64,000 nucleotides of DNA from Lytechinus pictus (Eukaryota): assembly GCF_037042905.1 (NCBI RefSeq), contig NC_087251.1, forward strand, positions 19,842,001 through 19,906,000, in the 5' to 3' direction. Made by a program: the position numbers and the translations under genes. How positions within the stretch are numbered: the stretch's first letter is position 1; the number at the start of each line of letters is the position of its first letter. Positions 15,120 to 64,000 of this stretch are shown here, one piece after another. Below the pieces are notes generated by a model. The model searched no databases and was not told the DNA's origin. It saw only the letters and a program-made list of their open reading frames with translations.

Positions 15120-15266
15120 TAATGCAAATGCAAAATCCATGATATATGATTTATAGATTTAAAATAATTTTTGCACACAACAGTGCAAGAACTAATGCAA
15201 ATGCAAAATCCATGATATATGACTTACAGATTTAAAATCATTTTTGCACACAACAGTGCAAGAACT
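15120..15266. repeat. 73-bp tandem duplication (2 copies)
   Basis: TAATGCAAATGCAAAATCCATGATATATGA...TTTTTGCACACAACAGTGCAAGAAC at 15120 and 15193, with about three substitutions. Confidence 0.95.
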
Positions 15267-29383: not shown

Positions 29384-29828
29384 TTACCCCATATCCACCA
29401 GGTTATTGGCCATGTGAGGCAGCATAGAGTTTTGGATGGAGTTTTGCAGCACCGAATCGGCGGCGTTGACCGGTGCGAGAGCTTGGGCGGCCGCCTCGGC
29501 AGCGCCGGGTGGTAAGTTCGTGATTCCGTAACCCGTTTTACTCAGTTCGCTCATCATCAGACCGGCGGGTCCGTGACTGTGAGGATGGGGGTGGCTATGG
29601 CTATGGCTATGGCTATGGCCGTGGCCGTGGCTATGCGGGTGGACGTGGCTGTGTTGATGACCATGACTATGATGAGGATGATGGTGCCCCACGTGCCCCA
29701 TGTGATTTACGCCCATATCTACCGACGTCGTCTCGCCCAAATTTTCTTTCCCATTCATAGGCAGGTCCTCTTCTGAACTTGTACTAGGTGTAGCCATTTT
29801 AGTTTTGCTCTCTTGTTCAGCATTCTCC
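29384..29828 (-). CDS. Six1/2: Six1/2 coding exon 2 (C-terminal region with His-rich tract, ends NLVDMG*)
   Basis: A pyrimidine-rich acceptor (TTTTCTCATACTTTTAAACTCCAG|G) restores the frame as ...AKE-R-ENAEQESK, matching the AKER|EN junction of vertebrate SIX1/SIX2. The end NNLVDMG* resembles the vertebrate LVDLGS* terminus. Spliced CDS is 554+445=999 nt, 332 aa. Confidence 0.93.
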
Positions 29829-32330
<2,502 letters not shown>

Positions 32331-35244
32331 ACGGGGTGGGGACTAGAGCTAGCCTTCCATTTCCTTGCCTACCACCGGCACAATCTTGCCCTAACTCCTT
32401 TGTTCAACCTCTCCTCTGGGCCTGATTTCTTGCAAGGCACTGGTAAACGAGGCTACTCGACGATCCCCGTCAAAAATTCAGTAACTGTTGCAAATTGGAA
32501 GAAATAACCGAGAGAAAACACAAAAAGTCACGTTAGAAAACAATATATCACAGATGATCACTTATCTTTATTAACAATCGTAAATATCATGCTCATCCCC
32601 CGGCAAGTGATGGCAGCAGAACTCATATTTTCAACCATAACTCACCCCCATGAAATTGCAAGTCAATTCATATTCCTGTGCGAGGCAAAATATGTTACTG
32701 CCAACTTCTTATTCTTCTCTGCAATAATCCCTGTCTCCCATCTTTCATCTGAATATTATCAATCGTTCAACGAGGCATTTCAGGTACATTGGGGTCAGAT
32801 TTTGTTTAACGCTGTGATCAGAGCAGCGAAAGGGTTTTTGTGGGGGAAATGTGAATCTTTTGGGCTGTCTCTAAACCTTCTCTACTCTAGCGAATAAACA
32901 TTGCCACTGGCAAACCATAATGGATTGGAAGGGTAAGTGGGTTCGTCCCGGCCATTGACAGAAAACTTTCTTAGGGCTGGCTTCTAAAATAGCTTGGGAA
33001 CAGAAAACATACCAAGAAACCATACATGGCACACCTTTCTCATGGTAAAACATGTTAATAAGAGCTGCTTTCATAAAATACAGTGTTAACTCAAGGTCAC
33101 ATACATTTCACCACATAAAAGCTACTAGCATTTATAAAGAAAAGAGCATACAGTTTTAGCGATTGAGCAAATAACCGCTTGTAGCCGATTCATAAAAGCC
33201 CGTCTTGGTTAAGAATCACAAGACACCCGATTTGAGACGAATTCTTTTAGAACAATAGCAATAATTAAAATTATAATTATGTTAAGAATAATCATAATGA
33301 TCATAAACATAATGATACTAGGCGGCTTGTAAAATACTACAAACAGCATCAGTAGAAAATGCACTAATGAAACTATACTACTACTACTACTCCTCCTTTT
33401 GGCAGAAATAGTAAGATAGTAGTAATAGTGGTAGTCGTGTAGAGTAGTAGTAATAATATATTATCATATTTTGATCTTACGGATATTGATAATGATGTTG
33501 AACTGTAAGTGTCAAAATAGGAACTGTAGTTTCCTATACGGAACATTGCCAGGAGAATTATGTTTGGAAATAATGGAAAAATTATGCATGCTGCCAACAT
33601 AGCACGATGTGAGCTTGGATGGGCCATGTAAAGAAAGGTCATGTCTTCCCACAGTTCAATTCGTCAATAATAACATAGGCCTATAATCGATATTGTAATT
33701 TATCATGCATGTAACTATGATTGTCTTTTGATAAATCATAATGAAATAATAATATAAGTGCATCAACATTCTCATCATTCTGCATGCTCATTCTTTTAAC
33801 GGTTTTATATAATGTTAAACGCAGGAGAATTTTGTAATACGGTGTACATCACATTTGCTAAGCAACGCCGAACAGTATATGGCCTTTATTGAACTGAAGA
33901 TGTTTACAAATTACCATTTTCTTTTCTTTTCTTTATTTTATTTTTTTTTTTTTGGGGGGGGGCTCAACAAAGATTTTAACCATTGACTTATTTATGACTG
34001 AATTTGACTATAGATTATGTCACTCTCACATGTTTAATACCCGGTTCACCAGATGATTTTCATGAGAGTTGAAAGAGCAAAAAACTGTATCGTCAGATGC
34101 TCTTTGGGTGAATACAGAGAGATTTATGTTTTGGATTTATCTTTTTAGTAGTGGTTCAATTATGATTTGAAATTAGGTCAGCGGTGTATTTAAATAGTAA
34201 AATGAATTAATGGAAAAGACAGAAGAAATTAAAAGTAAAACAATTCAGAGCGAAGAAAGAATTACGTTTAAAATTATGACACTTTCTACATTATACGTTT
34301 TACGCATGAAATTAATTTAACAATAATTATCCTCAATAATGCTTAACAAAATACACCCCGATGACCATCATCAATTTTGAATGGAGTAAGGACTGGAGAT
34401 CATTCACGATTGGCGACCTGATATTTTCCTCCTGATTTGCCACATACAAAGAATGACCGACCAGACGGGCGTTAGGCAATATAACTCACACTGTGATATT
34501 ATTATTGTGACTGACCAATTGTGCTAATCGACCATAAACTCTGTATATCTCGGGCGCGAGGTCTGTGATAAAGTACAAAGCATTTGATTCAACCAGGGAA
34601 GTATACCTCCCACTCCATCTCCCGGGATTTCATAAAAGTTTACTCCATGGAGGAGGAAGAGAGAGAAGGGGAGAGTGAGAGAAGGAGAGAGAGAGTGGGG
34701 AAGAGAGAGGAGGGGTAGGGCGGGGTACCGTATAGCTGGAAAGTAAACGTATAAAGTTGCGGGTGCACGCTCCTTTGTTTTAACGCAGAACAAAGGGTTG
34801 TATGTCATTAAGATTCCTGGTACACACCAGTATCTCATTATGGCGCCTGTAAATTAAAGATGCGGTTGGTTGAGCTTTCCCTTATCGTGAGGCATAAATC
34901 AAACTGGTGTCTATGGCTGTTGAACCGAGTAGAGAGTGTGACGTAATAATTAAAATCACGGTGTAAAATAATGACGAAATCAAATCAGTGTGCCTCATTG
35001 TTCAAAACGTTGATGAAATGAAATACCAAAATCTCCACCAATCTACAATCAGTATCAAATACCAGTAATGCACTGTTTATGTGCTTGTTTTTATTTTGTT
35101 TGTATTTTATTTTCAATTTCTAATATAGTTTCATGACCGGTATTTGGAAGGACCAACCATAGGCCATGGTGTATTAAATACAGCAAATGTATACTTTCTG
35201 TATTCCTAGTAGATTTGGACAGCACCATCCGTAAACAACTTTAA

Positions 35245-35844
35245 CGGTCAAGTTCACCCCAGAAAAATGTTGATTTGAATAAATAAAGAAAAATCAGATA
35301 TGCATTATGCTGAAAATTTCATCAAAATCGGATGTAAAATAAGAAAGTTATGACATTTTAAAATTTCGCTTATTTTTCACAAACAGTGATATGCACAACT
35401 CAGTGGCATGCAAATAAGACAGTCCATGATGTCCCTCACTCACTATTTCTTTTGTTTTTTTATTGTTTGAATGATACAATATTTCATTTTTTTACAGATT
35501 TGACAATAAGGACCAACTTGATTGAACCATATAGTATCAAACAATGCTAATTGCACATGTTCAGAGAGGAAGTAATCGTTGTTTCACACGACAACAGGGA
35601 GAAAATTCGAATATTTCATACTTCACATAATAAAATACAAAATAAATAGTGAGTGATGTCATCAGTCTCCTCATGTGCATACTGACAATGATGTGAATAT
35701 AACTGTTTTGTGAAATTAAGCGAAACTTTAAAATGTCATAACTTTCTTATTTTACATCCGATTTTGATGAAATTTTCAGTGTTATGCTTATTGGATTTTT
35801 CTCTTTTTATTTGAATCAACTTTTTGTTGGGGTGGACCTGTCCT
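35245..35844. mobile_element. Non-autonomous foldback MITE, Kolobok-like (TTAA target-site duplication)
   Basis: Long imperfect terminal inverted repeats of about 230 bp, e.g. CTGAAAATTTCATCAAAATCGGATGTAAAATAAGAAAGTTATGACATTTTAAA is present in both orientations. TTAA flanks at 35241-35244 and 35845-35848. Ends read (A/C)GG...CCT, which fits Kolobok better than piggyBac (CCY ends). Confidence 0.85.
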
Positions 35845-38800
35845 TTAAATCAAAGCTCTAAACACATCTATTTAATTACTAACAAGCATTTTAGGAGTCC
35901 CATAAACCGCAGTAGAATATAAACTTTATGGAATAGTTTATGCGCTCTACAAGTTTATATATTGTTATTATTATTATTTTTTTTTATTTTTTATAGTTTA
36001 TATTATTTCTCTTTATCATAATTCATGAATCAAAGAGAGAATTTGTATTTTTGCTATTATTGGCAACTTCGACGTGACTTCAATAATTTGTTACATAAAA
36101 TTTTAGAACATTAAATAAAGTTTTTCTTTTTACTCATCACCATGGGTCATTTTAATGATTTTTTATCCATTCTTTCACTCTAAAATTCAAATATGATCAA
36201 AGAAGACACATGTAAAATTATCATTTGATTTTTCCCTTATTATGAAAGTAATTTGTATGTAGATTATATTTTAGACAACGTAGCGATGATGCATGGCAAG
36301 TTACGCGGTATCAGAGGAGGAAATTCTGAAGAGACCTAAACCCTCCAAAGGGCAAAGCCTTTAAAGAGGTTGTTTTCCCGGAACAATACTTTCATATTTT
36401 ATGCAGTTAAACTTACTAGAGAGGATATAATCTTAACCATAAAATGGTTGTTTTTTCCTCCTTCTTTCTTCCGGGAGGAGATTCCTCATGCTGTTTTAAG
36501 CAACAAACAACCCCCCAAAAAAGACAGAAAACATGCCAAAACATCAAAAAAAGTATCGATCTAAGAGGATATGCAGTTTGTTATTTTGTATTACAATTCT
36601 ATGTTAAGACATCCCTTCAAAGACGAGTTCATGATCACAAAACGGACGGAAGCTTTTCAAGATATCATTGACTCGAGAAGGAAACTCGTATAGCTCTTCA
36701 AAATATTTTCTGCCAAATGATACTTGTTTTGTCATTTTCTTTGTAGGCCAAGCTTCCCCTGTAAATCTTGTAAGGTCACTATGTTCAAGGGAATCGATGG
36801 TCATGATGGTAGTGGTGCGAGGTGGTGGTTGCGGCGGTGGTATAGAAAATGTAGCCGGAAACATCTCAGGGTGTTCACCTTATCCACTTACAAAGGTGAA
36901 ATCTCGAGAATTTTATTTTTATTAAATCAACTGAACTCTTTCAACAACTTATATGCATTTTGCAATGCTTTCACTACATGAATTAAAAAAGGGCGTATCA
37001 GATTCACGATATTGATATAAGATAGTGCCCATTCGTGTAATGTATTAATTATGAATTTGATCTGAGTGTAATCAATTGACATTTGATTCCAGCGGAAGTT
37101 AATTTCCTTTGTGATTACGATATGTAGAGAAGATTAAAAAGGCCCCAAGAAAAGAAAACGAAGAACTGTGCATGTTACTGAGATATTTATTTAGCATCGG
37201 TAGTTTATAATCTCCGCGTAGTTTATAATCTTAAAATTATGCATTAGGTCCTGTAAACGGGTGTAAAAGCAGTCTTGCTGGTTTTACTTTCGCCATTTTT
37301 TTTGTTTATACATATCAATCTAGCATCGCCGAATTTTTCACAATATGTTATGCCTTTGCTGCTTGTGAAAAGAAACCCAATCCTTGAATGTAAAATCTTT
37401 TTTATTTTACTGAGGAGGTGATAAAAGAATCGTGAGAATATCTGAATGCCAAAATATCGGGTTTTTGTGCATTTTTAAAATTAATCGGTAAATAAATTCA
37501 AATCAGTAAAATAGACCATTGTCAAAGATGGTCTATTTAAATATATTGATAGCGCCGCGTATAATATCCTTTTAAGCATTTGAACACTTTTTAAAATAGC
37601 AACCATTCTTACTCATCTGTTCTCCATGTTCTCGTCTGTATGATCTGAGAATGCTGAGTGCGAAAGTAAATCTTTACAAAAATACCCAAAATATTTGTTT
37701 AAGTGGGGGCGTTTCTCGTCATATAAACCGTTACACAATTACTAAAAATCATTTTAATCATGTGTATGTTTATCTTCTAATTATTGATTTTGCTATATCA
37801 ATTCATATTTGCTGTATCATTAAGATTTGCTAAATCATCACAAGACTGCATAAATCGTAGAAAATGTTTCCGTCGATGTTTATGACTTCAAGCATTGTAA
37901 TGCAAAACGTCCAGGTTGACAAAAACAAGACCGCGAAATCGGTCAAACTTCTCAAGCTCATTGACGGCCAGAAAAAATCAGATCTAATCGTATTTGATGA
38001 GAAATGGTATTAAAATCAACAAGATGTCGTCCATCTGTGTCTAATTTCCTTTACATCGTTAATAACCATCTCCGAAGTCTGACCATAGTCTGCGATCGCA
38101 AAAATACCTTTGCCACGTCATGAATCCCGCCTTCTTAAATTATCATTTTGTTTTGTTATTTCCTGTTATATTTCCCCTGTTTTTATATATTTTCTTCCTC
38201 TTTTGATAGTTGTAATAAATATTTCTTTCAAACTGACCATATTTTCTTGCTGGTTTCTATTAGATTTTGTAAGATTCCAAATCCCTTCTTCCTTTCCCCC
38301 CTGTTTCCGTTTTCCGCCTTCATATCGCAAAAAAGGTCTGAATCATTTCAATCTAAACAAGTCATAAGTATTTTTGATGAATTGCATCAAATATTATCTG
38401 TCTATATTGTATTTGCACAAAAATGGTCTCTATGGTTAATTTTTTTCAATGAATCCGAGTGGGAAAGCACAATAATAAAAAAAAACTTGCAAATTTAGAG
38501 CAGTATTTGACCGATATGAAGTTATCCCTTCGGGATCAAACGATTACTAACTTGCGGTAACTACACATTCTCCTTTCATTCTATTTTAATTGATACATCT
38601 TTAGATTTTTGTTTTTCTATTCCCAACTTGAATACTATGCAGTCCTATTATAAATTTCTACTAACTAATCTTAAGAATTGGATTTACATTTTAGAAAGTT
38701 GTTGAAATGATTCCTGAGCGCATTTCATTAACTTTTATCATTATTGTAATTTTCTGTATTTCACCGAACGTCGTACACGATGGGTCAAATTCATGACTGC

Positions 38801-57474: not shown

Positions 57475-57478
<4 letters not shown>

Positions 57479-57568
<90 letters not shown>
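57479..57568. repeat. (TA)n microsatellite
   Basis: Directly visible. Confidence 0.98.
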
Positions 57569-57569
<1 letters not shown>

Positions 57570-57690
57570 CTTGAATATACAATTCTGCGTTGACATGATT
57601 GCAGAATACTTTAACTCTTTGTAGTTTCATTTTTTCAATTCGTTTTCTAAATAATCTCATGGATGTGATATATATATACATATATATATA

Positions 57691-58118
57691 TGTGTGTGAA
57701 GTTATACATGTACTACAGCTTTGGCAACTCTTTTATTTGAATATTGTGTGAAAGAAATGGATGAAGAGAACAATGGTAGGCGTAGCTTAAATCAAGGTTC
57801 CCCAGAGCTATCTACCCTTTTGGAAAAATTGGTGATGCCGAAAAAATGTCTCTGCCGGGAATCGAACCCGGGCCCCCAGCTTTGAACGCCGGTGCCTTAA
57901 CCACTAGACCACAGAGACGGGTTAGTGGCTAGGGCGACCCCGATCCGATTGACCGTCAGATAGACAGATTTTCGACACCATACCAATTATAATTTCCTTT
58001 GTCGGGTGAAGGTGGGTTTTGAACAATGACAAGCCGCCATGCCTCAGCTGGATCAAAGCTATTGCTTTGATACAGTACACGTATGGGAGAATGTATACAA
58101 ATGTATGGGAGAATGTAT

Positions 58119-58123
<5 letters not shown>
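57691..58123. mobile_element. Putative (TA)n-flanked cassette carrying the tRNA-like gene
   Basis: GC-richer block bounded by TA tracts (about 57669-57691 and 58124-58151). It has an 8-bp hairpin ATCAAAGC/GCTTTGAT (58052-58071) and a terminal direct repeat GTATGGGAGAATGTATAC x2 with period 22. Confidence 0.5.
57847..57918 (-). tRNA. tRNA-like gene, full cloverleaf with anticodon TCA (opal-suppressor-like, Glu-like body); probably repeat-borne
   Basis: Minus strand reads GTCTCTG TG GTCT AGTGGTTA AGGC A CCGGC GTTCAAA GCTGG GGGC CCGGG TTCGATT CCCGG CAGAGAC A. All four stems pair, A and B boxes are intact, and T6 (57846-57841) follows immediately. Confidence 0.75.
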
Positions 58124-58154
<31 letters not shown>

Positions 58155-60780
58155 TTTCTAGATAGTTTCCATTTTCAAAGAGCAAATCATGATTATAATT
58201 GTTAGGTGTTATGAATCAACAATATATTTAATATACATCAGGAATTTTATAGTTATTAAATTACATTTATTATCGCTTTTTACTCGCAACAAATTAAAAA
58301 ATTTCCAGAAAAAATTCCCTTAACATGTTGAACATACGGTTTTTACAAAATAAAAATCAAATCAACCCCCCCCCCCCAAAAAAAAAAAAAAAACACATAT
58401 AAGTTATATAATGCACTTTTATTTAAACTATCAATATCTTATGAACATAATGAACATGGGTAAATCATACATTTTCAGTGTGCCTATGATTTCGACACTC
58501 ATGTTTCCCATTTTACAATTCTTTCCGTTATGAATGTTATAAGTACAACTAATATTTCAAATTTATTTGGTTTTTTTCTTTGTATCTCATGAATGGCAAT
58601 TTGAGTGGAATGACCCTACCTAAATTAGTATCTCTTTGAACTACATCAATATGATGTGAAAATTTGTATAGAAATGCTAAATGTTAACTGCAAAATAAAT
58701 CCTTTCCTGCATACAAAGATCTTAGTGAAATTTTGATGAATATAATTCTGTATAATCTTGGAAATACCAAGAAAGTTCTTAATCAAGTGCTTACAGTTAT
58801 TTTGTTATGTCAAACATTCTATACATGAAACACTGATTGATTACATAAAACTTTTCTTTGATGAGCAATCAATGTACTTTAGTGCAGAGGGAATCTTCTC
58901 ACATATCTTATTTTCCCATGATCCTTACTTCTTTTTTTTATAGATTAGGCTATTCCGTTGATGTTGATGTGATTCTCGATACCATAATTATTTAAAAAAA
59001 TTAAATGTACCTCATTCCCAATGTGCGGTTAGTGCTGATATTAAGAGCATGAATCACTCTAACGTAATAGCGTACAACTCTGATACCAAATGCATGAATG
59101 TGCGTTTACATGAATAAAAGTCAACATCAAACTTGGAATTACCAACTGGGTATATGATGATACAGATTAATTCTTAATTTGTTAAAGTATCGTAAGACAA
59201 TAAAGTAATTCCGGTAATCTTATCCATGATACAAATGCTACGAAAAGAAAGATCTTATATTCAATGGATATTATATTAATTGAACAAATGTCTTTTTCAA
59301 GATTGGTTTCGAACTGCCATTCTGAAAATTTTTGCAGCCTTTGGTATTATTTAATCATTGGTGTTAAAAAAAACACTTAGGTTCTGTCATTGTTTTTGTT
59401 TTATTTTATTTCACTTTTACTTTTATCTTAGGGGTGTTATATGTACTGATTTGGGGTGAAGATTTTTTTTCCCGAAGGCCCTGAAATCGGACAATATTTA
59501 CAATAATTATGATGACATGACATGCAAAATAATCGGCACTGATGACCCACAATAAAATTAGAAGAACAAAGAAAGTAGAAAAGTTATTTATTGCGTCCAA
59601 TTGTATTGTGAAAAGGAGTTTAAGGATATGATTTTGTACAGTAACAATCTAAAGTTTGCAACGTGTATCCAACTTATTAACATGATTGAGGGGTTTAAGC
59701 GTCATAGAGCGGTGACAATGGGCTCACTTTGCAATCTAACTATAGCATAATTTCAAGCATGAAAATATCCCTCGTATGCATTGCCTTTCAACTATAATTT
59801 GGAATATTTTTTGTGTTTTTAACGTAAAAGTTGAAATGCCCCGCCCACTCTAAATGATCGAGCAACATCGCGGGAACTAGTTGATCCAGCATTACAATTA
59901 GGGGGAAAACAGTACGATAGGGAAAATACTGAAAATCTATACCCCATTGTCAGGTTGGTCATGGGAATGAATTCCATCCCTCATCTGAGGACACACCTCA
60001 AAATCCCTGAGAGCTACCTGGTCTCATGTTTGGACAAACTCTACAGGGGAGGTCATGACAAACACCTCTTCAAAATAAAAGAAAATGGGCCAGAGTGATG
60101 GGGAAGATGGATGAAGAGCGGTTTAAAAACAACATGTAACCATGTGAAGATTTAAACTGGGGAAGGGAATCCCAAAGATGTGTTACAAAATAAATATCCC
60201 GCACCAAACCCCATCTGGCCTACGTGCTATGTGAGACAACATTCTCCTAATCGCACAGGTGCGAATATACTTGATGTTAAGACACCCATAATCCTCGCGT
60301 GGAGTTTGGATCTGTGAACATGTTCACATAACACCATCCCTCCCAATTCCCCCAACACCCACACCCACACGTTGGCGGACACACACGCACATCTACCCTC
60401 ACTCATGCGCACACACACCCACACACCAGGCCGCTTTTTTTTTAAAGAAAACTAATTGCATATGCAACAATCGACATCCCATCTCCCTCTCATGTCCCTG
60501 CTTTGATCAGCACGTTTGTATCACCCTAATCATGCTAATACAATTGTTATTAAATTATGTTTGCAGTATTATAAACACGATTGAAATTCAGTACTGAATT
60601 TCTACTCTGCTTTTGTATTTTTATCTGTATCTTTACATGTCGCATGTGTTTTGATCAATTTACATAGCGCAAATAGAAGCCACTGAATATAGCCATAATT
60701 ACGGTGATAAACTGAACATTATACGTTTTCGGTGGTCAAAACTATGCATAGTTCTGGGGGAGGTGTGTGTTTGATATTTT

Positions 60781-63251: not shown

Positions 63252-64000
63252 AACAAGTGGAATGCCTCTGGCGGTCTCACCTGCATCACGCGATTCAATA
63301 TAGCAGCAGTGCTGACTTTGAAAACTACTATAAAATAATTATTCACGAAAAACACCATAAATATAATGATACAATACTACGTTCATTAATATTCGACCTT
63401 GATCATGTGACCTAAAACTTGTCAGTTATACTTGATTACCCCTATATCCAAATTTTATACACTATATCTATAGACTTTGAAAGTTATGACAGCAATCTAA
63501 TAATTACCTCTAAAATGGCCAAAGTTCAAAGACCTTAAATGACCTTAACTTTGGTCATGTGACCTGAAACTCGCATGAGATGTTCAGTGATACTTGACTC
63601 TTATGTCCAAGTTTTATGAACTAGATCAATACACTTACACAGATATGATGGTAATTCAACAAATACCCCCAACATGGCCAATGTCCATTGACCTTGGTCA
63701 TGTGACCTGAAACTCGCACAAGATGTTCAGTGATACTTGGTTACTCTTATGTCCACGTTTTATGAACTAGACCAATACACTTACAGAGATATGATGGTAA
63801 TTCAACAAATACCCCCAACATGGCCAAAGTTCATTGACCTTACATGACCTTTGACCTTAATCATGTGACTTGAAACTTCCACAGGATGTTCAGTGATACT
63901 TGATTATTATTATGTTCATGTTTCATGAATCAGATCCATAAACTTTCAAAGTTATGATGGTAATTCAACATATACCCCCAATTTGGCCAAAGTTCATTGA
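63252..64000 (+). mobile_element. Tandem-array element (about 143-163 bp TGACCT-rich units), possibly a non-autonomous Helitron/Helentron type; runs off the window
   Basis: The word CATGTGAC recurs at 63404, 63556, 63699 and 63862, with shared GATGTTCAGTGATACTTG and ATGATGGTAATTCAACAAATACCCCC blocks. A unique head begins AACAAGTGG at about 63252. The tandem structure is certain; the superfamily is inferred. Confidence 0.7.

Follow-up and report, generated by a model that had tools for sequence, protein, structure and literature searches.

The tRNA-like cloverleaf with a UCA anticodon on the minus strand of a 64,000-nucleotide stretch of the Lytechinus pictus genome (contig NC_087251.1, hereafter the window) is no lone gene: it sits at the middle of a high-copy repeat about 405 bp long. 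It is considered reasonably probable that this repeat is a non-autonomous, ribozyme-free, retrozyme-like selfish retroelement, equipped with a Pol III tRNA module and probably moved by Penelope-like elements, rather than a host suppressor-tRNA gene. Read in this likely way, the repeat would be the equivalent of animal retrozymes that does without a ribozyme, and it would warn annotators that many tRNA-Sec or opal-suppressor predictions in this genome are copies of it.

Structure and Identity of the tRNA Module

The features of the module are as follows (positions are those of the window).

57847-57918, minus strand: tRNA-like gene with 7/5 cloverleaf, A- and B-box-like sequences, G32, anticodon UCA, and A73 (sequence, ARAGORN, Rfam, pair listing)
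57883-57885, minus strand: anticodon TCA, the family norm (ARAGORN and run variants)
57841-57846, minus strand: T6, Pol III terminator-like, with a T5 next at 57828-57824 (sequence)

The cloverleaf comprises 72 nt (57918-57847), in which all 7 acceptor pairs are Watson-Crick in the pair listing, the D stem has 4 bp with one U-G, the anticodon stem has 5 bp with one G-U, and the T stem has 5 of 5 pairs. The variable loop is 4 nt long, the discriminator is A73, and the anticodon loop reads G32 U33 U34 C35 A36 A37 A38 with TCA at 57885-57883. The match to the Rfam tRNA model RF00005 (60.9 bits, E 9.8e-11, gathering score 29) is far beyond chance. The sequence itself, the pair listing, ARAGORN, and RF00005 agree with the cloverleaf drawn in the sequence-only reading, including its stems, G32, U33, A37, TCA, 4-nt variable loop, and T6. 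The free tRNA RNA folds at -30.4 kcal/mol (z -2.0; 5 of 200 shuffles were equally good), and the full cloverleaf lies 0.8 kcal/mol above the minimum-energy fold because the D stem is weak.

ARAGORN labels this sole tRNA of the window tRNA-SeC(tca), which is due to the anticodon. Eukaryotic tRNA-Sec is defined by a 9/4 fold with a 13-bp acceptor plus T stem, a long variable arm, a 6-bp D stem, and G73, and it is over-called by general tRNA finders, as described in the sections of PMC5330540 used here. The element shares with this class the UCA anticodon only and differs from it in 7+5 pairs, the 4-nt variable loop, the 4-bp D stem, A73, and many copies, so that the initial denial of a tRNA-Sec identity was correct.

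The relatives of the module were sought with a pattern made of its own D-arm start and T arm in part of a metagenome collection, where two cut-off matches were skipped. The 145 complete tRNA matches comprised 118 Glu, 25 Gly(TCC), and 2 Lys; the earlier claim that the D and T arms resemble tRNA-Glu is thus right for most matches, but the resemblance is not exclusive. In this search, biased to the D and T arms, the closest relative was a Gly(TCC) tRNA with 18 of 72 differences and the closest Glu tRNA had 21, while the 52 distinct Glu/Gly/Lys relatives differed at 18-31 of 72 positions, chiefly in the acceptor and anticodon stems. By these sequence comparisons the module appears to be of Glu/Gly type and no one-step mutant of the metagenome relatives. 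A glycine-TCC ancestor was considered and rejected: the nearest relative is Gly(TCC), yet no TCC variant was listed in any of the four aligned runs (contigs of 82% identity or more). The acceptor and T arms presumably also resemble tRNA-Arg(TCT). Exact tRNA-arm patterns gave 0 matches each in the metagenome, viral, and prokaryote genome collections. The metagenome tRNAs L093 and L124 combine Glu-type bodies with Lys anticodons and are probably decayed or switched copies.

A pyrimidine is the rule at tRNA position 32, and a purine there is rare. The module has G32 instead, and no other base was listed at this position in four of four aligned runs. Contacts between positions 32 and 38 modulate tRNA binding to the ribosomal A site, according to the part of PMC10275265 relied on here. 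G32 together with an acceptor stem unlike that of the Glu/Gly relatives likely keeps the element tRNA from decoding well.

Extent, Copies, and Context of the Repeat Unit

The unit and its surroundings contain the following features.

57696-58102, minus strand: whole high-copy repeat unit, about 405 bp with ends uncertain by a few bases, present head-to-tail as well (runs X11 and X2)
57696-57840, minus strand: 3' part of the unit, containing AATAAA at 57737-57732 and predicted to pair with the 5' arm and with the 5' end of the unit (fold)
57919-58015, minus strand: 5' arm, which repeats the tRNA, except for the anticodon arm, and the tRNA's 3' flank in antisense and decayed form (alignment, fold, inverted repeats I2 and I4)
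58103-58120, no strand: 18 nt at the 5' edge of the unit that repeat 58081-58098 exactly (repeat search, D1)
58124-58151, no strand: (AT)14 microsatellite at the 5' edge
57668-57698, no strand: short CA/TA microsatellite at the 3' edge
57475-57568: (TA)47 tract beyond the 3' edge

At the studied locus the unit is a monomer between the (AT)14 and the short CA/TA tracts, and a second copy was not found within the 64-kb window. Part or all of 57600-58200 is present in 20 of the 24 listed runs. The contigs of four runs were aligned to the stretch with a floor of 82% identity, which may leave out older subfamilies. In the DNA run X2 there were 9,416 contigs on the unit (3,188 at 99% identity or above, 3,695 at 95-99%, 2,004 at 90-95%, and 529 below 90%), and the summed depth in bins from 57705 to 58082 was 0.2-1.25 million versus 30-46 for the eight single X2 pieces listed, a comparison that does not give a copy number. 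The flanks 57600-57702 and 58114-58200 were masked as repeats in the depth profile, and the unit ends were set from junctions and not from depth. The single X11 contig of 434 nt is circular and runs back into its own start with a 404-nt period, and an X2 joint connects 58102 to 57718; these junctions represent head-to-tail copies with about 3 letters between unit ends. Four of the 15 joints listed are opposite-strand, each seen in one contig, and could stem from the unit's internal palindrome. Many internal loose ends of X2 lie near 57741-57751 and 57819-57820 and look like truncations; the X2 loose ends are AT-rich. A target-site duplication, which in Helenus elements has 4 bp, is unreadable at the locus, since the unit ends inside a microsatellite. 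The AATAAA motif lies about 40 nt before the end of the unit.

The contrast with an ordinary SINE head, suggested from the letters of the locus, was confirmed: about 184 nt of the unit lie upstream of the tRNA, and T6 follows it. The titles and abstract openings searched held no published description of a family of about 405 bp, which may be catalogued in Repbase, Dfam, GtRNAdb, or supplements.

Run-word shares of the repeat were 0.13 in X19 and 0.06 in X20. Presence across species or horizontal transfer is not proposed. The word share is 0.43-0.49 in organisms B-E, yet only 1 contig of X11 and 22 contigs of X12 aligned, at low depth. X12 and X14, which are labelled as other organisms, contain about half of the repeat's words and further runs of their samples (X21-X24) 0.00-0.02, a discrepancy that makes carry-over between libraries as likely as cross-species presence.

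Antisense Arm and Predicted Fold

The unit reads as an imperfect palindrome whose centre is the start of the tRNA. Some 95 nt upstream of the tRNA match, as reverse complement, the tRNA together with its 3' flank, and the arm-to-arm alignment scored above all 300 shuffles at 4 of 5 gap settings; at the harshest setting it was not above them (18.5 versus a shuffle maximum of 21.5). The fold contains 41 predicted arm-tRNA pairs with the arm side at 57919-57966.

The unit RNA on the tRNA strand is predicted to form a rod of -148 kcal/mol (z -7.95, 0 of 100 shuffles as good; core z -7.21) with 67% of bases paired, the outermost 16 and 9 nt being unpaired. Within this rod the equilibrium prediction gives the acceptor, D, and T stems a probability of 0.0 and the anticodon stem at least 0.99, while the acceptor-stem probability is 0.998 for the tRNA with T6 alone and with a leader of up to 8 nt and falls to 0.001 with a 15-nt leader. 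The prediction for unit-length RNA is thus a fold without the cloverleaf, in which only the anticodon hairpin is exposed. The opposite strand also folds (-128.9 kcal/mol, z -4.16), as does the DNA strand (z -6.55); this modelled folding is as expected for any old palindrome and counts against the retroelement reading.

A separate small hairpin lies at 58037-58086 near the unit's 5' end (I1), and the common change at 58068 keeps its pairing, from A-U to G-U. Release of monomers from read-through RNA by RNase P was considered but not adopted, since by equilibrium folding the acceptor stem is absent from both tRNA copies (probability 0.0 and 0.003). For self-priming by the element's own tRNA, the rest of the unit was found to contain no stretch of 6-13 nt exactly complementary to the tRNA 3' end.

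Variation among Copies

In X2 there were 28 changes at 4% of depth or more, of which 27 were listed; the change at 57739 (95%), private to the studied copy, was dropped, and 26 changes were tested. Nine of them break a pair on the tRNA strand versus 12.9 under the null (P 0.024), whereas 15 of 26 do so on the opposite strand versus 14.4 (P 0.69), and the mean energy cost of common variants was 1.22 versus 1.92 kcal/mol (P 0.027). Common variants spare the predicted rod on the tRNA strand only, by tests of modest strength on changes that are linked in subfamilies. The partners 57780 and 58037 both vary in a compensating way (C-G, U-G, U-A), the two changes not being phased. In X12, by contrast, the two sets of phased variants carry energy costs of 4.0 and 7.0 kcal/mol and lack compensation. 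A strand bias of G-U versus A-C between the arms was not detected (9-14 versus 14-16, P 0.3-0.86).

None of the 25 commonly varying positions, one of them a 1-nt deletion, in the 398 nt scanned in X2 lies inside the 72-nt tRNA, where 4.5 would be expected. Uniform placement gives P 0.006, a circular-shift test 0.05, and the merging of clustered sites 0.09. The longest invariant stretch in X2, 87 nt, spans the tRNA and T6, and the next longest is 37 nt. The five tRNA sites with listed changes reach 0.05-1.1% in X2, a level also found at rare sites of the flanks; the only anticodon change listed there affects the third base (57883) at 0.19% of depth, and in X13, tentatively an RNA run, this base differs in 2 contigs (8%). 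No change or indel was listed for T6. TCA and all stems are thus fixed at the 4% level in X2, and the randomised anticodon loops and stem decay named at the outset as the mark of an inert pseudo-tRNA did not appear in contigs of 82% identity or more. Within the family TCA is the rule, not a product of drift. Intact source copies within an abundant repeat would explain this conservation without a role in translation.

In nine of the 41 arm-tRNA pairs the arm base varies, and in none of them the tRNA base (P 0.004; the changes are linked). Because the arm varies while the tRNA does not, the rod alone leaves the invariance of the tRNA unexplained, and by sequence the tRNA appears to carry constraint, or history, beyond the rod. 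That it is invariant while its pairing partner drifts points to a testable function of the short RNA.

One alternative is a transcribed and charged opal-suppressor or decoy tRNA acting in translation and amplified with its flanks. The complete cloverleaf with A and B boxes and T6, the absence of the 25 commonly varying positions from the tRNA, and the nine variable arm sides versus none on the tRNA would fit this explanation, as would A73, G1-C72, C35, and A36, which we take to overlap tryptophan identity elements. Against it stand G32 where a pyrimidine is usual, an acceptor stem unlike all 52 distinct Glu/Gly/Lys relatives, and the cost that very many active opal suppressors should have for the host. 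In-frame UGA codons, which also speak for the suppressor, are described in some clam and spider Naiad elements (PMC8557442, in the part consulted), though they are read there as Sec via SECIS, and predicted suppressor tRNAs in mobile elements are a known annotation artefact, with the precedent of Helenus tRNA-Sup, where all suppressor-tRNA predictions came from one mobile element (PMC10886601, in the sections considered). We regard the translational explanation as very unlikely. The step from intactness to a functional host suppressor, offered as a possibility in the sequence-only reading, is not supported, as the gene lies in an abundant repeat and its cloverleaf is predicted to be absent from unit-length RNA. 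Were the RNA charged, the animal would carry a mass-amplified stop-codon-reading tRNA. On an altered genetic code the Six1/2 gene of the window, which ends in TAA, gives no information about UGA.

A hairpin-shaped non-autonomous DNA transposon of the MITE or foldback kind, TA-targeting and carrying the tRNA gene only incidentally, would account for the imperfect palindrome of the whole unit, the folding of its DNA strand, the TA context, and the lack of a G-U excess between the arms. Such an element is unlikely here, given that true terminal inverted repeats were not seen (the termini are unpaired, and none of the 4 inverted repeats is a terminal pair), that head-to-tail junctions contain about 3 extra letters, that variants spare the fold on one strand only, and that the internal loose ends in X2 look like truncations.

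Selection on the tRNA and the rod may be dispensed with altogether if the unit is a young satellite-like repeat with a recently captured or homogenised tRNA, whose fold is a by-product of an old inversion. This we hold to be improbable in view of the 87-nt invariant stretch centred on the tRNA (versus 37 nt for the next), the strand-specific sparing of pairs, and the one compensating pair, although the P for tRNA invariance weakens to 0.05 and 0.09 under the stricter treatments, both strands fold, and SINE-derived satellites (PMC10702118) and SINE palindromes (PMC11481361) are known from the parts of these reports used here.

Comparison with Known Mobile Elements

Animal retrozymes are non-coding units of 150-450 bp, present as monomers or tandem copies, with a type I hammerhead ribozyme in each unit, self-paired RNA expressed as linear and circular monomers, and a proposed mobilisation by Penelope-like elements (PMC7229834; 10.64898/2026.07.22.740005; both as far as consulted). 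The element resembles the animal non-LTR retrozymes of Cervera and de la Pena (2020, PMC7229834) and of Li, Clavereau and Pollet (2026) in unit size, head-to-tail copies, and predicted self-pairing; it differs in lacking a hammerhead ribozyme and in having a full tRNA gene with terminator as its core. A ribozyme was not found among 20 Rfam matches at E up to 10, nor was the hammerhead core heptamer on either strand of the unit.

In Craig et al. (2021, PMC8557442) study the Naiad elements are described, in the part drawn on, as having an insertion bias for (TA)n, head-to-tail copies, and no hammerhead. Their (TA)n context (seen at one locus here), head-to-tail arrangement, and lack of a hammerhead link the unit to Naiad/Chlamys Penelope-like elements and their non-autonomous derivatives, from which it differs by having no coding part and by a tRNA module that is not among the Naiad features described in the same part of that paper. 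Non-autonomous elements of the Naiad kind would also show tandem and inverted truncated copies and a 3' end similar to that of an autonomous family. The element would help to test a question raised in that paper, whether Penelope-type cargo depends on hammerheads or only carries them as passengers.

The Helenus / TRIMp3 elements (Kojima 2024, PMC10886601, in the sections considered) are likewise short mobile units; their internal Pol III module is tRNA-like and leads to exaggerated counts of tRNAs and suppressor tRNAs. Unlike these, the element shows no two-LTR layout, PBS, or PPT, its tRNA is fully paired and has a terminator, and its palindrome has the start of the tRNA as its centre. A solo LTR of a Helenus-type TRIM, that is, a tRNA-bearing LTR mobilised by Gypsy, has in its favour the tRNA-like part within a unit of a few hundred bases, TG near 58099 and CA near 57696, AATAAA about 40 nt before the end, and the tandem arrays known for LTR-11_DR from the same sections (PMC10886601). 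The roughly 3 letters between X11 unit ends leave no internal part with primer site and polypurine tract, though rare full forms are possible; Helenus keeps mostly the boxes, and echinoderms and microsatellites are not mentioned in the part of its main text considered. A solo LTR is therefore judged highly improbable.

With tRNA-derived SINEs (SINE2, including palindromic and tandem forms, PMC11481361 and PMC10702118, as far as these sources were used) the element shares a tRNA-derived Pol III module and a high copy number, and such a SINE is its probable ancestor. It differs in that its tRNA is central and not 5', is followed by T6 and then T5, and has the inverted arm as a fixed part of the unit.

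Proposed Origin and Mobilisation

For the retrozyme-like retroelement the following course may be proposed. A tRNA-headed retroposon would have folded back on its own 5' end, the dimer becoming the mobile unit, and its UCA anticodon would be an inherited founder state. Source copies may have retained the tRNA gene because it serves them as an internal promoter module for Pol III. The short transcript from +1 to T6 is predicted to fold as the cloverleaf, and a transcript with at least 15 nt of upstream sequence as the rod, in which the acceptor, D, and T arms are buried and the anticodon hairpin stands out. Rod RNA of unit length or multimeric, arising by read-through, would be the template for reverse transcription, and an endonuclease-bearing Penelope-like element would perform the insertion into (TA)n. 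The Penelope link is probable by analogy: it draws on resemblance in (TA)n bias, tandem copies, the lack of hammerheads, and the proposed Penelope origin of retrozymes.

Pol III should terminate at T6 plus T5, and a long RNA would therefore require read-through or transcription by Pol II. The passage of a long transcript beyond T6 and T5 and the invariance of the whole tRNA, beyond its A and B boxes, are the weakest steps of the proposal. None of the 30 ORFs of the window matches a reverse transcriptase or GIY-YIG family, and this lack of an autonomous partner within the window counts against the retroelement reading.

A further-reaching variant, to which we give little probability, is a tRNA-driven retrozyme with a conformational switch. 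Its short transcript would be a stable, chargeable UGA-reading tRNA produced from very many loci; its long transcript would form a viroid-like rod, and at the anticodon loop, its one exposed hairpin, a host tRNA nuclease would cleave the rod and a tRNA ligase would close it into circles made without a ribozyme, which a Penelope-like reverse transcriptase would copy into tandem insertions.

Other Features of the Window

The tRNA repeat lies about 26 kb upstream of a Six1/2 homeobox gene, encoded in two exons on the minus strand (31392-32285 and 29384-29887; Pfam SIX1_SD and homeodomain). Its exon 2 contains a His-rich tract and the stop TAA and is 79% identical to a six1b-like protein of Diadema setosum, the best named match, and 46% identical to a starfish protein. 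At 35240-35849 there is a 610-bp imperfect palindrome with 158-nt outer arms that are 84% complementary, which is MITE-like. A tandem repeat with a period of 146-163 bp occupies 63392-64000 and runs off the window end; presumably it resembles a common sea-urchin repeat. Two near-identical tandem copies of 73 bp are located at 15120-15266.
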